A stretch of 64,000 nucleotides of DNA from Candidatus Collierbacteria bacterium GW2011_GWB2_45_17 (GCA_001001485.1 LCKO01000001.1:76517-140516); one strand, 5' to 3'. Counted from the first letter of the stretch, positions 57,001-64,000 are shown. Numbers are program-made.

Positions 57001-60000
57001 AACTTGAGCTAGAAAACGAAAAACTCAAGCACACCGATGCCGAGATTTCTGACCCCAATGCTTTATGAAATCTCTCTTTGCCAGGCTTTGGAAAGTTCTC
57101 AATTTTTCAAAAAAGATACAGATAGCAATTATGCATCTGTTCCAAGACAAATTTCTGGTTGGGGTAACCGGAATTATTTTTAACGATCAGAACGAAGTTC
57201 TCCTTTTTAAACATCTCTATCGCGCACACGCTTGGAGCTTACCCGGGGGATATTTGAAGGGTGGAGAACACCCCAAGGAGGGATTAGAGAGAGAAATAAA
57301 AGAAGAGTCGGGTTTGGTTGTCAGTGCCGACTCACCTCTCAAAACCCGCACCGACAGAGATGCGGCCAGACTTGACATGTGTTACACCGGGATCTTAATT
57401 GGCGGCGAGTTCACACCTTCTCACGAAGTGTCTGAGTTTGGTTTTTTTGCCCAAGATAAATTACCTCTTTTACGTAGCAACCAAGTTTTCCTTATCGACA
57501 CCGCTCTCCAAGAGCGCCGTCCAAAATTTATCTCCCATGAACTACTCTCAAATATCGAATGAATTTTCATCCAAATTTTTCGAGTTAGTTGAAAAGGCAA
57601 ACAAGATTGTAATCACCGCCCACGAATCTCCAGATGATGACTCCATAGGATCGGTACTGTCTATTTATGAGATTCTTATCACTAAATATCCAAGGAAAAA
57701 TATAAGAATCATCTATTCCAGCGAACCGGAACCTAGATTCAGCGTCTTCAAAAACTACAGCAAAATTGAGTTCGTCCCAGATTTAGCCGATGAAATTGGG
57801 AATACAGATTTGCTAGTTGTACTCGATGGAAGTCAATTTAGTCGATTTTCGAAGCAGCCCGAAAAACTAAAGATAATTCCCAAAAATATCTGTATTGATC
57901 ACCACGCATCACCAATTAATGAATTTTCATTGAGTCTGGTATCTCCAGACTATCCCTCTTGCACAGAAATAATTTATCTTGCTTTATGTCGCGACTTTGT
58001 AGTTAGTAGAGAACTTGCCGAAATTTTTCTTTTGGGAATACTTGGAGATACGGGTAACTTTACTTATTTAAAGCCTCATCAGACCGAAACACTAGCAACA
58101 GCCAAAAAGTTACTAGAGATTAGTAAAATCGAAATTCAAGAATTCCAGTCCAGATATAGAACAATCTCCAAGCGATCATTTGCCGTTATACAAGAGTTAA
58201 TGAAGAACACTTGTTATTTCTTCCGTGATTGGTTGGCCTGATTTTCAATATACTTATATCGAGAGGAAATTTGCGGAAGATGATAAATATACGGATAGTG
58301 AAATTAGTGAGGGGAATCACCTCTACATGTCAAACTATTTAAGAATGATTGAAGGACATACTTGGGGTTTTGTAATAACACCAAAAAATAACGGTGAATG
58401 TGGTATATCTGGAAGATCGTTACCAAAGAGTGTTAGTATAAGAGATTTAATGGAAAGAATGAAAATCGGAGGGGGACATGATAGGGCGGCTGGAGGAACG
58501 TTTAAAAACGAGAAAGATGTAAAAAACTGTATCAATGAAGTCATAGAATGGACCAAAAATAATAAACCTATAATACTATAAGTTTTGCTTTGAGGCTTAT
58601 GCCTCTGCGAAATCTCGTGTACCCCAACGGGAGCTCTGCGCGGCCTGTCCCTGTACTTCTGGAGCCACACTCGGCTCCCGCCCTTATCGTCATTGCGAGT
58701 TTCGGTACTCCGAACCGTAGCTCTCCTAGATACCCTTGCGGGTAAATCTCACTCCACCCTGTCATTCAGGGCTTGACATATCGGTCAAAGTGCCTGCTTC
58801 GCAGGCACAAAAGTGGAAACTATTGACAAGTTATCCATATGGGAGTATATTCCCATCTATTGCGCCATGGCGCAATGCTATGAACAAATTAATTTTTGCG
58901 ACGGGGAACCGGGCAAAGTTATTAGACGCTTCAAAAGCTCTATCTGAATTAGGGATAGAAATTATTGGGCAAAAAATAGAAATAGAGGAGATTCAAAGTT
59001 TAGATCAGGAAGAAATTATTATGAAAAAGGCCAAAAAAGCCTTTGAGATGGTCAACTTACCTCTTTTTGTAGACGACACGGGTTTTTATCTAGATTCGTA
59101 TCCACAGTTTCCAGGAACTCTCACCAAATACGTAAATAAGACTTTGGGAATAAATGGTCTTTCAAAGCTTTTTGAGGAGGGTCAGACAGCCCATTTCAAA
59201 ACCCTTCTTTGCTTGATAACTTCTGACACAGTAGTTATTGCTGAGGGGAAACTATCAGGTAAACTCACAAAAAAGATGTCTTCCAACTTCAATCCCGATA
59301 CTCCCATAAATAGTATTTTTGTTCCCGAAGGATACAACAAACCACTAATAGATCTCATCGAGAATTCCAACATAGGTAACCTCCATCGTACAAGGGCATT
59401 CGTCGATTTGGGTACAAAAATCAAAACATTACAAATTAATTTAATAAATGACTCCATCTGAAAAAGTTCTTAAAGACAACAGAGGCTATGTTAGTCAGTA
59501 TCCAAAAAACAAAAAGGTTGTCATGATTGTCTCTGGCGGTCTTGACTCAATAGCGACATCGGCAAGGCTAATGGAAGAATTTGATCTGGAAATCTTTCCT
59601 CTACATATACACAGGGGACAAACTAACACAAATGCTGAAAATAATGCTGTCAATTTTTTTACTGATTATTTTCAAAACAGGTATGGTAAAAATAAATTCC
59701 ATACTCCTCAGATGATATCTGTCAACGTGCCTCCTGTAGAATTTAAAAAGGATTTATTACCCTACACAAAGGTAAAAGGACATCCAATGAGAGATCCCAT
59801 AATGCACCTATTGGGAGTCGAATACGCCGTTGCAGTATCTCAGGCATCAGATGAGCCAGTAAAAACAATCTATTGTGCTATTGTTCCAGAAGATTATTTT
59901 CCTCATAGCTCTTTAGATGGTTTAAGAGCCAATACGGTGAATACCTGTATCAATATGGGTGATTGGGACTGGCAAATTTCTTCACCCAACATAGATCCTT

Positions 60001-63000: not shown

Positions 63001-64000
63001 AAACAGGTCAGATCGTTACATTCCCTCTTCAGCATGAAGATAGTGAGCAGATGTTGGCAATGATAGTTCTAACTGCCGATCCTGAAATCATTCTTACCAG
63101 AAGACTCGGGGACAAAAGTAGATCTGATCGATTTATGGACTTGGATGTTATCATTGAAGAACAAAGGATAGAGATCGAAACTGCAGAAGCCCAATCAAAA
63201 CAGCTCGACAGAGAACTAGTTATTGTAGACAATTCTCCAGAGGGACTATCTGTATACAAAGAAATCATCAACAAGGCATTTCCTGAAGGTAATCTTTCCT
63301 CTACTTTGGAAGCTGCTATCTTTGGATCGGGTGGAAAATTAGAAACAAACAGATAAACATATGTCAATTCTTGCAGATAACCAAGTCAAAGAGATGATCT
63401 CAGCAAAAATGCTGAATATTGATCCATTTTTTTCAGATTTCTTAGGACCTAACCTCTATTATTGCCATTTGGGAAATAAGTTTCTTGTACCAAAGAATGA
63501 AGTCAGGACTTTTGACCCTCTAACTATGGAGTCCAAAGACATTTTCGAATCAGTTGAGACTAACCTGCCTATCACCATAAAAACCCAAGGCTTTCTACTA
63601 GCTGAAACATTTGAATATTTTGGCGTAGATGACAAGCATGTTGTAAAACTCATGAACTCAAGTTCTTTGGCTCGTTGCGGAATTTCCCATGCTGCCATAG
63701 GGATGATTAACGCTGGTTGTGGTATGGAGAAGCCCGTTAAGTTAACTCTTGAACTCGTTAATAACGCACCTTTTGATGTTATCCTTACACCCACCTCAAT
63801 TGACGAAAATAAAAAAATTATCTGGGGAACTGAAGTCTTGAAAATTGCTGTTGAAACAATGAGTTTTAAACCTGATTCCTCTTATGATAAGTGGAGATTC
63901 GCTGCGTACAACAAAGACCAAAAACCCAGTGGTTCGAAAATGAAAAATCGCTTTGAATCGGGAAAGGAATTTATTGTTCCAACAAACTCCCTATACAACA

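Follow-up and report, generated by a model that had tools for sequence, protein, structure and literature searches.

Organization of the gene cluster

A compact operon of Candidatus Collierbacteria bacterium GW2011_GWB2_45_17 (GCA_001001485.1), a member of the candidate phyla radiation (CPR), combines a short relative of thymidylate synthase (TS) with two QueC-like PP-loop ATPases, a HisC-family pyridoxal phosphate (PLP) enzyme and several enzymes acting on nucleotides. We analyzed it within a stretch of 64,000 nucleotides (LCKO01000001.1:76517-140516), hereafter called the window. Proteins nearly identical to those of the window carry the name Candidatus Collierbacteria, and this, together with a low-scoring bacterial RNase P RNA in the window, identifies the host as a CPR bacterium. 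Related loci are labelled L001-L045 and proteins P0xxx, and coordinates refer to the 64-kb window unless a locus is named. An earlier inspection of this DNA without database searches (the sequence-only reading) had described a candidate non-canonical nucleotide or DNA-hypermodification cassette here. Its gene list, coordinates and domains were borne out: all of the open reading frames (ORFs) that it named were present on the plus strand between 57065 and 64000, and Pfam and NCBIfam confirmed their domains (Table 1).

Table 1. Genes and features at the cluster end of the window
Feature	Position	Strand	Basis
Nudix hydrolase, 165 aa	57065-57562	+	Pfam NUDIX, 49.9 bits
NrnA-like DHH/DHHA1 phosphoesterase, in two pieces (57537-58241, 58225-58581)	57537-58581	+	Pfam DHH, DHHA1
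Intergenic region, 298 bp, with a dispersed repeat copy and a promoter-like site	58582-58879		Sequence read
Ham1a, divergent Ham1/RdgB-family NTP pyrophosphatase, 193 aa, first operon gene	58880-59461	+	Pfam Ham1p_like, 85 bits
QueC-like 1, PP-loop ATPase, 258 aa	59448-60224	+	Pfam QueC, 47.9 bits
HisC-family PLP enzyme, 357 aa	60193-61266	+	TIGR01141, 236.7
Short TS-family enzyme, 205 aa	61295-61912	+	Pfam, 51 bits
QueC-like 2, 268 aa	61909-62715	+	Pfam QueC, 44 bits
P-loop kinase, archaeal adenylate-kinase type, 212 aa	62718-63356	+	Pfam AAA_17
DCD-like (dCTP-deaminase-like) protein, 214 aa, last two codons past the window	63361-64000 (true end 64005)	+	Pfam DCD, 60.8 bits

The genes are as tightly packed as had been described. 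Stop and start codons overlap at the Ham1/QueC1, QueC1/HisC and TS/QueC2 junctions, and the remaining gaps measure 2-29 nt. The true start of Ham1a is 58880, and about 30 nt upstream of it lies a promoter-like site (58823-58851; TTGACA, a 17-nt spacer, TATATT) that matches the consensus at 11 of 12 positions and is the best in the region. To judge from this layout, the operon begins at Ham1a, behind a strong promoter-like site. Low GC had been claimed from about 57.5 kb onward; the cluster itself is indeed poorer in GC (0.374 over 58880-64000 vs 0.419 in the rest of the window), with third-position GC of 0.31-0.36 against 0.43-0.52 in the flanking genes, but the difference is modest, the Nudix gene itself is not GC-poor, and the 28-36 kb part of the window is lower still than the cluster.

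The sequence beyond the window was read from contig L002, which was reached through an exact look-up with the kinase and is identical to the window over 11,283 bases (0 mismatches); it places the end of the DCD-like gene at the window-equivalent position 64005. The cluster does continue past the window, as had been expected, though only by two genes: Ham1b, another Ham1 paralogue, encoded on the minus strand, and then an NDT/DNPH1-like gene, which is the end of the operon. Beyond the NDT-like gene the synteny of L001 and L002 breaks. L001 continues with GreA, SerRS and SecA, and L002 with an ISNCY-like transposase (L002 12596-13843, about 600 nt past the window end), a LysM protein, TGT and QueA. 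The DpdA, QueD/QueE, FolE, aGPT-Pplase or glycosyltransferase genes that might have been looked for downstream were not found after the cluster. Nor was an adjacent restriction system found in this genome, and searches of viral collections gave no close relatives.

Upstream, the split of the nrnA-like gene, noticed earlier, is explained by a single extra T at about 58217 in an alignment with strain L001, where the gene is intact (347 aa). The gene is split in L002-L005, that is, in four independent assemblies, so that the frameshift looks like either a genuine pseudogene at the level of the population or a slippery site. Because the nrnA-like gene is seen only in this lineage, it probably lies outside the conserved core.

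Conservation across ultra-small bacteria and archaea

We mapped the window proteins and their recurrent partners onto about 40 loci. A core consisting of the short TS, one or two QueC-family enzymes, Ham1 and a nucleoside monophosphate (NMP) kinase recurs in about 30 loci, in Collierbacteria and other CPR bacteria, Uhrbacteria, Omnitrophota, Ca. Vecturithrix, and Nanoarchaeota and other archaea. The TS relative and the QueC-like proteins have homologues in other CPR lineages, Nanoarchaeota, other archaea, Omnitrophota, Methylomirabilota and Ca. Vecturithrix. The Collierbacteria cluster is thus one variant of a conserved gene set that is patchily spread among CPR bacteria, DPANN archaea, Omnitrophota and Ca. 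Vecturithrix.

Five recurrent architectures can be distinguished. Type A (Ham1a, QueC1, HisC-like, TS, QueC2, kinase, DCD, Ham1b, NDT) occurs in the window, L001-L005, L032-L034, L036 and L027, and partially in L026 and L041. Type B carries NDT, TS, QueC2 and kinase on one strand and QueC1, Ham1b and Nudix on the other, and type C is made up of QueC2, a dNK/Tmk-like kinase, a GT1 glycosyltransferase, an HD protein, Ham1a, TS and NDT. The archaeal type D comprises a pyruvate-kinase-like (PK-like) protein, Ham1a, TS, QueC, four conserved proteins without a family match and PfkB, and type E has additional Ham1 copies and a nucleoside diphosphate kinase (NDK). In nearly every locus the TS gene adjoins a QueC-like gene, and a few loci (L006, L008) contain TS but no QueC. 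A Ham1 gene adjoins TS in L010, L012, L014, L022 and L025, and a Nudix gene adjoins the cluster in L015, L016, L027, L037 and L040.

Some of these neighbors are joined in single proteins. TS is fused to Ham1 in P0192, to Nudix in P0199 and to an S-adenosylmethionine (SAM) methyltransferase in P0210, and in L026 a Ham1-methyltransferase-Ham1 protein stands where QueC2 would be expected. Through these fusions the TS step is tied to NTP pyrophosphohydrolysis and to methylation. The accompanying kinases are of three types (adenylate kinase (AK)-like, dNK/Tmk-like and NDK), and further (d)NTP-degrading enzymes, HD and DCD, are present. The DCD-like and HisC-like genes occur only alongside TS variants with Asp at position 177 (E. 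coli numbering): none of about 14 loci whose TS has Asn177 carries either. The TS of L027 has a longer architecture and yet has Asp177.

The family comprises 37 clusters at 50% identity (E<=1e-30), and the QueC-like proteins 80 clusters at 90% identity. Insertion sequence (IS) elements or transposases adjoin the cluster in L002 and L010. The small size of the family for so large a database and the IS elements that flank L010 suggest that the gene set is an accessory, mobile module, and its lower third-position GC relative to the flanks fits an acquired character.

Other neighbors of the cluster are worth recording. In the archaeal version (L014 10819-16278; L025 10905-16500; the contig of P0180), the four conserved proteins, of about 281, 238, 626 and 717 aa, had no Pfam or NCBIfam match; they are flanked by the pyruvate-kinase-barrel-like protein and the PfkB kinase. 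A 325-aa partner in L006 likewise had no match in Pfam or NCBIfam. Small proteins with a GreA/GreB C-terminal domain recur beside the cluster in unrelated lineages (L001 12949-13422, L012 6687-7349, L027 5417-5911, and L032), and they may resemble Rnk, the regulator of nucleoside diphosphate kinase. In Ca. Vecturithrix (L012 3023-4051 and 15873-19390), an EVE-domain protein is encoded upstream, and HATPase_c_3 and large unknown proteins, one of which weakly matches radical SAM, are encoded downstream; these neighbors may have a link to the recognition or restriction of modified DNA.

The short TS relative

The 205-aa length given for the TS homologue, unusually short, was confirmed. In an alignment to E. 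coli ThyA, the protein keeps Y94, P145-C146, R166, S167, D169, H207 and Y209, with Asp at the position of N177 and His at that of L143 (signature His143/Asp169/Asp177). Its YAD motif aligns with the VSD motif of MilA and with N177 of E. coli. The R21 loop and the last ~50 residues (the folate-closing C terminus) are missing, as is most of the W83 region, and the R126/R127 pair is replaced by Lys-Ser. In a census of short TS relatives, 134 of 217 had the combination His/Asp/Asp, and smaller classes had Tyr/Asp/Asn or other combinations. The His at position 143 is nearly invariant in the clade; it is polar, and neither Asp nor Glu, the acidic residues that admit water at this position in dCMP/CMP hydroxymethylases.

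According to Lee et al. (2026, PMC13326640), N177D confers dCMP specificity, L143D/E a hydroxymethyl product, and D169N defines the flavin-dependent 5-hydroxy-dCMP synthases. By these rules the TS relative reads as cytosine-specific because of its Asp at N177, and we predict that it acts on (d)CMP at C5. For its AlphaFold2 (AF2) model (pLDDT 95.9), the best fold match is the CMP hydroxymethylase MilA (TMq 0.88), followed by the dCMP hydroxylase of phage HY126 (0.83). The signature His143/Asp169/Asp177 is a candidate new specificity class of the TS family.

The best PDB sequence match, 9iqu, raised the possibility of a flavin hydroxylase. The flavin-dependent 5-hydroxy-dCMP synthases (RB69 gp48, DLP3 gp80, HY126 AfhB; PDB 9iqu/9iqc) share the short TS fold and Asp177 with the window protein, and their substrate is dCMP. 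We rejected this identity, since the RSQD motif of the window protein retains Asp169 and the diagnostic D169N is absent. Among the NCBIfam models, the methanogen-type TS (TIGR03283) scored best, at 135.7, which is below its cut-off of 174.55; TIGR03284 scored 42 against 108. The methanogen-type enzymes resemble the TS relative in their short architecture of about 200 aa, but their virus representative, from the methanogen virus PhiF1, has Glu143/Asn177 in place of the His143/Asp177 of the window. Fusions with pterin domains (MtrA-like, TS, PterinBD-DUF4346) also have Asn177. We therefore rejected the idea that Asp177 is a mere methanogen-type trait, and consider it a derived feature of the clade.

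A further class of short TS relatives has Asn169 together with Phe, Met or Tyr at position 177 (RSQNALNSYGNF/M; P0232, P0239, P0246, P0292 and others). This signature matches no characterized activity of the TS family.

The QueC-like pair

The two QueC-like proteins are 37% identical to each other. Both keep the SGGLDS PP-loop and an HPMRN version of the VPxRN motif. Libby et al. (2026, PMC13329287) found the substrate motifs YxQxHxxE and YPDC, with Y35 and Y131, to be essential in QueC. Neither motif is present in the pair: an invariant Arg aligns with Y35, and YPDC reads FPHS. Against the QueC model TIGR00364 (cut-off 150 bits), QueC-like 1 scored 20 bits and QueC-like 2 scored 32 bits, and a phmmer search with E. 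coli QueC did not retrieve either. The canonical zinc motif C(x)8CxxCxxC takes the form C(x)12CxxCxxC in QueC-like 1, with all four zinc cysteines kept; in QueC-like 2 the second Cys is missing, and there is another invariant Cys upstream. QueC-like 2 also has an N-terminal extension of about 45 aa with a conserved RRGY, and its gene, whose start overlaps the TS stop, adjoins TS in nearly all loci. None of the mapped loci contained queD or queE.

Within PF06508, both proteins share SGGxDS, the VPxRN-like HPMRN and, in variant form, a cysteine-rich zinc site with QueC, Cap9 and QatC. The only PDB protein that they match, by sequence and by fold, is Cap9 (pLDDT of the AF2 model of QueC-like 2, 94.4). 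They differ from these relatives in lacking the YxQxHxxE and YPDC motifs, in having neither 7-deazaguanine genes nor defense partners beside them, and in standing next to TS. On the strength of their motifs and scores, the QueC-like proteins are not QueC orthologues. The survey of non-canonical QueC clusters by Libby et al. (PMC13329287) includes one tied to PfkB-PF05014 proteins and none linked to TS; the TS-linked proteins are a candidate new QueC subfamily. By analogy with the chemistry of the family, they should adenylate an oxygen, either of a carboxylate or of a ring carbonyl, and pass the intermediate on to an amine.

The associated enzymes

The HisC-like protein scores 236.7 against a TIGR01141 cut-off of 276.55. 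It falls in a clade of about 38 clusters (P0336-P0373; 36-100% identity) that is sharply separate from generic HisC, and for at least 13 members of this clade the longest contig equals in size that of the TS or QueC matches. The gene lies between QueC and TS in L026 and L027 too, and its context is this cluster rather than a his operon. The PLP lysine K214 is kept, as are R222, R335, N157 and Y187, and an N-terminal FDLAEG replaces LNANE[NY]P. By these features the HisC-like enzyme belongs to a clade dedicated to the cluster.

The P-loop kinase is presumed to be an NMP kinase: it scores 54 with the archaeal AK model PRK04040 (cut-off 155), its best PDB match is the Sulfolobus AK (1nks), and orthologues are present in most related clusters. 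The DCD-like protein scores 70.4 with TIGR02274 (cut-off 92.8) and, in alignments to the E. coli and M. tuberculosis Dcd proteins, keeps Ser111, Arg115 and Glu138. In all cluster DCDs, including those of L012 and L027, the IDPGW sugar pocket has become INAG with a deletion, so that Asp128 is Asn and Trp131 is lost. Because of the changes at Asp128 and Trp131, the tolerance of the protein toward the sugar or toward C5 groups may differ from that of Dcd.

Ham1a keeps the catalytic T8/K13/E40/D69, and its SHR motif reads LHR. Both Ham1 paralogues retain the catalytic core and have lost the FGYDP base motif; the SHR position is kept in the Ham1a type and is W[GA][NK]D[RH] in the Ham1b type. The Ham1 NCBIfam scores lie under the equivalog cut-offs.

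The NDT-like protein is nearest to DNPH1/Rcl, the 5-hydroxymethyl-dUMP N-hydrolase, and Asp or Glu occupies the nucleophile position in all six of the six cluster homologues. In L002 (11882-12466), L015, L017, L021 and L022, a conserved stretch of about 50 aa extends the C terminus in a strand-helix-helix pattern and gives weak ribbon-helix-helix matches (E ~0.03). Instead of being an enzyme, the NDT-like protein could be a repressor that senses nucleotides.

A proposed route to a modified pyrimidine nucleotide

How might these enzymes work together? Because this set of genes is met repeatedly in ultra-small bacteria and archaea, we consider that the cluster probably makes a non-standard pyrimidine nucleotide by an undescribed pathway. 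The earlier suspicions of a non-standard pathway and of something other than a plain dcd-thyA-tmk operon gain from this analysis: the TS relative has Asp177 and no folate-closing C terminus, the QueC-like proteins are not orthologues of QueC, the PLP clade is dedicated, and the set is conserved across phyla. Our favored interpretation, to which we assign a probability of roughly 0.45, is that the cluster remodels the nucleotide pool, in a manner similar to phage T4, into a 5-substituted pyrimidine (d)NTP.

In the T-even phages, dCTP is converted to 5-hydroxymethyl-dCTP by the gp56 dCTPase, the gp42 dCMP hydroxymethylase and the gp1 dNMP kinase. The cluster shares with this route the logic of an NTP pyrophosphatase, a TS-family enzyme with Asp177 and an NMP kinase, and some variants (L010, L021, L022, L045) add a glycosyltransferase and an HD protein. 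The likeness to the pre-replicative pool remodelling of T-even phages follows from the TS-Ham1 and TS-Nudix fusions, the cytosine-type signature, a constant NMP-kinase-type gene (with NDK in some loci) and the DCD and HD proteins. In the same way, the logic of pyrimidine dNTP remodelling that the sequence-only reading had seen in the gene list finds support in the match of pyrophosphatase, C5-modifying TS relative and kinase to the phage scheme, and in these fusions. The differences are also considerable. The cluster resides in cellular CPR and DPANN genomes; its pyrophosphatases are Ham1 and Nudix proteins, not of the gp56 type; its TS of 205 aa has neither the R21 loop nor the C terminus and has His, not Asp or Glu, at position 143; and its QueC-family, HisC-family and DCD-like enzymes have no T4 counterpart.

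In the proposed route, the divergent Ham1 and Nudix pyrophosphatases would cut (d)CTP to (d)CMP, and the short TS-family enzyme would then add a one-carbon group at C5; the retained Asp169 would fit a donor of the pterin type. Next, the two QueC-family ATPases and the HisC-family PLP enzyme might elaborate the nucleotide by ATP-dependent amide or amine chemistry, after which the archaeal-AK-like kinase and the cellular NDK would re-phosphorylate the product. Finally, the DCD-like protein would deaminate a cytosine triphosphate and may turn the modified C form into the U form, at which the Asn177 cluster variants would arrive without this step. The route would yield a non-canonical 5-substituted pyrimidine (d)NTP, whose most plausible fate is incorporation into nucleic acid. 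What rests on observation is the gene content, its conservation across phyla, the residue signatures and the gene fusions; we infer the order of these steps, the ribo or deoxy form of the intermediates, the nature of the C5 group, the chemistry of the QueC-like and PLP enzymes and the destination of the product. That the group is more than methyl or hydroxymethyl is argued by the dedicated PLP enzyme, the two amidoligases, the methyltransferase fusions and, in other variants, the GT1-HD pair.

Phage thymidine hypermodification offers a second comparison. It shares with the cluster a TS homologue, a P-loop kinase and a PLP enzyme. The cluster differs in having no aGPT-Pplase or radical SAM partner and a kinase of the adenylate kinase type, in not being viral, and in a context that suggests chemistry at the level of the mononucleotide rather than of DNA. 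Among the window proteins, neither Pfam nor PHROG searches matched aGPT-Pplase or 5-HMUDK. We also considered a viral origin of the cluster and rejected it: two pattern scans of IMG/VR were empty, and phage relatives in GenBank were no more than 28% identical and stood in ordinary QueC or TS contexts.

Several points weigh against the interpretation as pool remodelling. The substrates are all deduced from residues and context, and nothing accounts for the need for QueC-family enzymes. No partner acting at the DNA level was found in this genome, be it a glycosyltransferase, a transglycosylase, a nuclease that depends on modification or is blocked by it, or a dedicated polymerase. His at the L143 position is unlike the Asp or Glu of known hydroxymethylases. 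The ribo and deoxy signals are mixed: the Lys at R126 resembles the CMP-preferring MilA, Ser167 resembles the dCMP enzymes, and the Asp128/Trp131 sugar pocket is missing from the DCD-like protein. A path on which dCMP becomes 5-methyl-dCTP and then ordinary dTTP would account just as well for the co-occurrence of DCD with Asp177. Finally, the loci are phylogenetically non-independent, and correlations among them are weaker than the counts suggest.

A bolder version of pool remodelling, which we hold to be distinctly unlikely, is that a hypermodified pyrimidine, supplied by the cluster as a (d)NTP, takes the place of a canonical base in the genomic DNA of some CPR and DPANN organisms themselves. 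To our knowledge, pre-replicative base replacement has been documented so far only in viruses. If it did occur in these cells, the DNA of an episymbiont would be chemically distinct from the host DNA that it scavenges, and QueC-family amidoligases would have their first role in pyrimidine chemistry.

If the pool-remodelling interpretation is correct in its general form, phage-style remodelling would operate in cells with the smallest known genomes and would have passed from one domain to the other between Bacteria and Archaea. Two kinds of enzyme, the PP-loop amidoligases of QueC type and the dedicated PLP enzyme of HisC type, would be newly tied to pyrimidines, and the product might be a new natural nucleotide. 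In the literature collection that was searched, no paper was found on this gene combination, on a TS-linked QueC subfamily or on modified DNA in CPR or DPANN organisms. What would be new here is a nucleotide-level modification of pyrimidines encoded by cells, not by viruses, with enzyme families new to that chemistry. The cluster also bears on how CPR and DPANN symbionts handle nucleotides that they do not make de novo.

Alternative explanations

The strongest rival, which we nevertheless judge unlikely, is that the cluster is an unusual housekeeping module of archaeal origin for dTTP synthesis or salvage and for the dNTP pool. In the Asp177 clusters, Ham1 would convert dCTP to dCMP, TS would methylate this to 5-methyl-dCMP, kinases would raise it to 5-methyl-dCTP, and the DCD-like protein would yield dTTP, with no dUMP or dUTP being made. 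In the Asn177 clusters, dUTP would pass through dUMP and dTMP to dTDP. Ham1 and Nudix would also sanitize the pool, and the QueC-like proteins and the PLP enzyme would either assist the TS step, for instance through supply or recycling of the one-carbon donor, or interconvert bases. The restriction of the DCD-like gene to Asp177 clusters speaks for this explanation, as if the two routes converged on thymine nucleotides, and so does the proximity of the TS relative to the methanogen-type model. The kinase, the NDK and the Rnk/GreA-like neighbors are ordinary genes of nucleotide metabolism, and CPR organisms generally do not make nucleotides de novo. A scan of the window for another ThyA or ThyX found none, although 64 kb is too little to decide the matter. 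On the other side, the family has a rare and patchy distribution for a module with a housekeeping role, its third-position GC is unlike that of the flanking genes, and it is found next to IS elements and moves from one domain to another. The PLP enzyme, the two amidoligases, the SAM methyltransferase fusions and, in other variants, the glycosyltransferase and HD protein surpass what dTTP synthesis needs, and His143 is not the bulky hydrophobic residue tied to methyl products. Even this conservative alternative, which leads from dCMP to dTTP without passing through dUMP, would be biochemically new.

We give rather little credence to a small pyrimidine metabolite, either an antimetabolite or a vitamin-like compound, made by the logic of mildiomycin (MilA/MilB) or bacimethrin (BcmA-D), in which a CMP hydroxymethylase is paired with an N-glycosidase. 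CMP would be hydroxymethylated, the NDT/DNPH1-like protein would free the base or nucleoside, and a methyltransferase, a kinase (AK-like or PfkB), the QueC-like proteins and the PLP enzyme would tailor it. The TS relative is closest to MilA in fold and signature, sharing Asp177 and a Lys at the position of MilA Lys133, and the NDT-superfamily partner is recurrent and keeps an acidic residue at the catalytic position. Among the partners in some variants, SAM methyltransferases and kinases of the PfkB type are also found repeatedly, and the non-canonical QueC cluster tied to PfkB-PF05014 proteins (PMC13329287) offers a parallel. However, the cluster contains no tailoring set for sugars and nucleosides, and it is dominated by enzymes acting on NTPs (two Ham1, Nudix, DCD, NDK, NMP kinase and HD), for which a free-base product would have no need. 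The NDT-like protein resembles DNPH1/Rcl more closely than MilB and carries an additional C-terminal domain, a possible ribbon-helix-helix tail that may make it a regulator. The hosts, in turn, are symbionts of ultra-small size whose secondary metabolism is minimal.

It is very improbable that the QueC-like proteins serve 7-deazaguanine metabolism (queuosine, archaeosine or a Dpd-type pathway) with the pyrimidine genes as mere neighbors. Pfam does place both in PF06508, and bona fide Tgt and QueA genes lie 4-6 kb from the cluster in L002 (15612-18321), and in L006 a QueA gene (3850-4839) is found 5 kb away from the short TS. But the scores far below the TIGR00364 cut-off, the failure of E. coli QueC to retrieve the pair and the absence of the essential substrate motifs (PMC13329287) all count against it; no queD, queE, folE, queF or dpdA is nearby; and the conserved adjacency is with TS, not with Tgt or QueA, whose region is not adjacent in L001. 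The TGT and QueA of L002 both exceed the equivalog cut-offs for tRNA enzymes (TGT, 440.7 vs 306.75 for tRNA Tgt), and the resemblance to 7-deazaguanine DNA modification that had been noted earlier found no support. The proximity of Tgt and QueA may be due to chance in small genomes, or to a weak queuosine link.

Hardly credible, finally, is anti-phage defense by nucleotide depletion or poisoning, whether of the dCTP-deaminase and kinase type or through a QatC/Cap9-like QueC effector: the kinase does directly precede a dCTP-deaminase relative, as in fused defensive dCTP deaminases, QueC-family proteins do act in Qat and type IV CBASS, and EVE-domain and HATPase_c_3 genes are near the Ca. Vecturithrix cluster, but PADLOC gave no match for the kinase or the DCD-like protein and weak, partial matches for QueC/QatC, no QatA/B/D, CD-NTase or Cap10 was found in the window or related loci, and the cluster is built as a biosynthetic pathway of many sequential enzymes.

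Other features of the window

The repeat copies that had been placed at 58.69-58.81 kb were recovered in part, as a single copy, at 58689, of the dispersed repeat core GTCATTGCGAG. This core occurs on the plus strand of the window six times (0.67 expected), at 1103, 1610, 8721, 15423, 27690 and 58689, within GC-rich, hairpin-like intergenic elements that are probably similar to repetitive extragenic palindromic (REP) elements or to miniature inverted-repeat transposable elements (MITEs).

Three further repeats are found within or close to the stretch of the window where GC is lowest (28-36 kb, 0.32-0.37): a direct repeat of 298 nt, 84% identical (24422-24719 and 28847-29144), a perfect repeat of 81 nt whose copies are 5.1 kb apart (31829-31909 and 36984-37064), and a 53-nt repeat in three copies (23672, 27355, 31898). 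Their positions suggest a second variable or mobile region. An ORF at 20135-20662 contains three repeat copies with a period of 159 nt (20227-20596), corresponding to tandem protein repeats of 53 aa. A bacterial RNase P RNA of class A, about 305 nt long, lies on the minus strand at 4012-4316 and scores 105.5 against a gathering threshold of 100.

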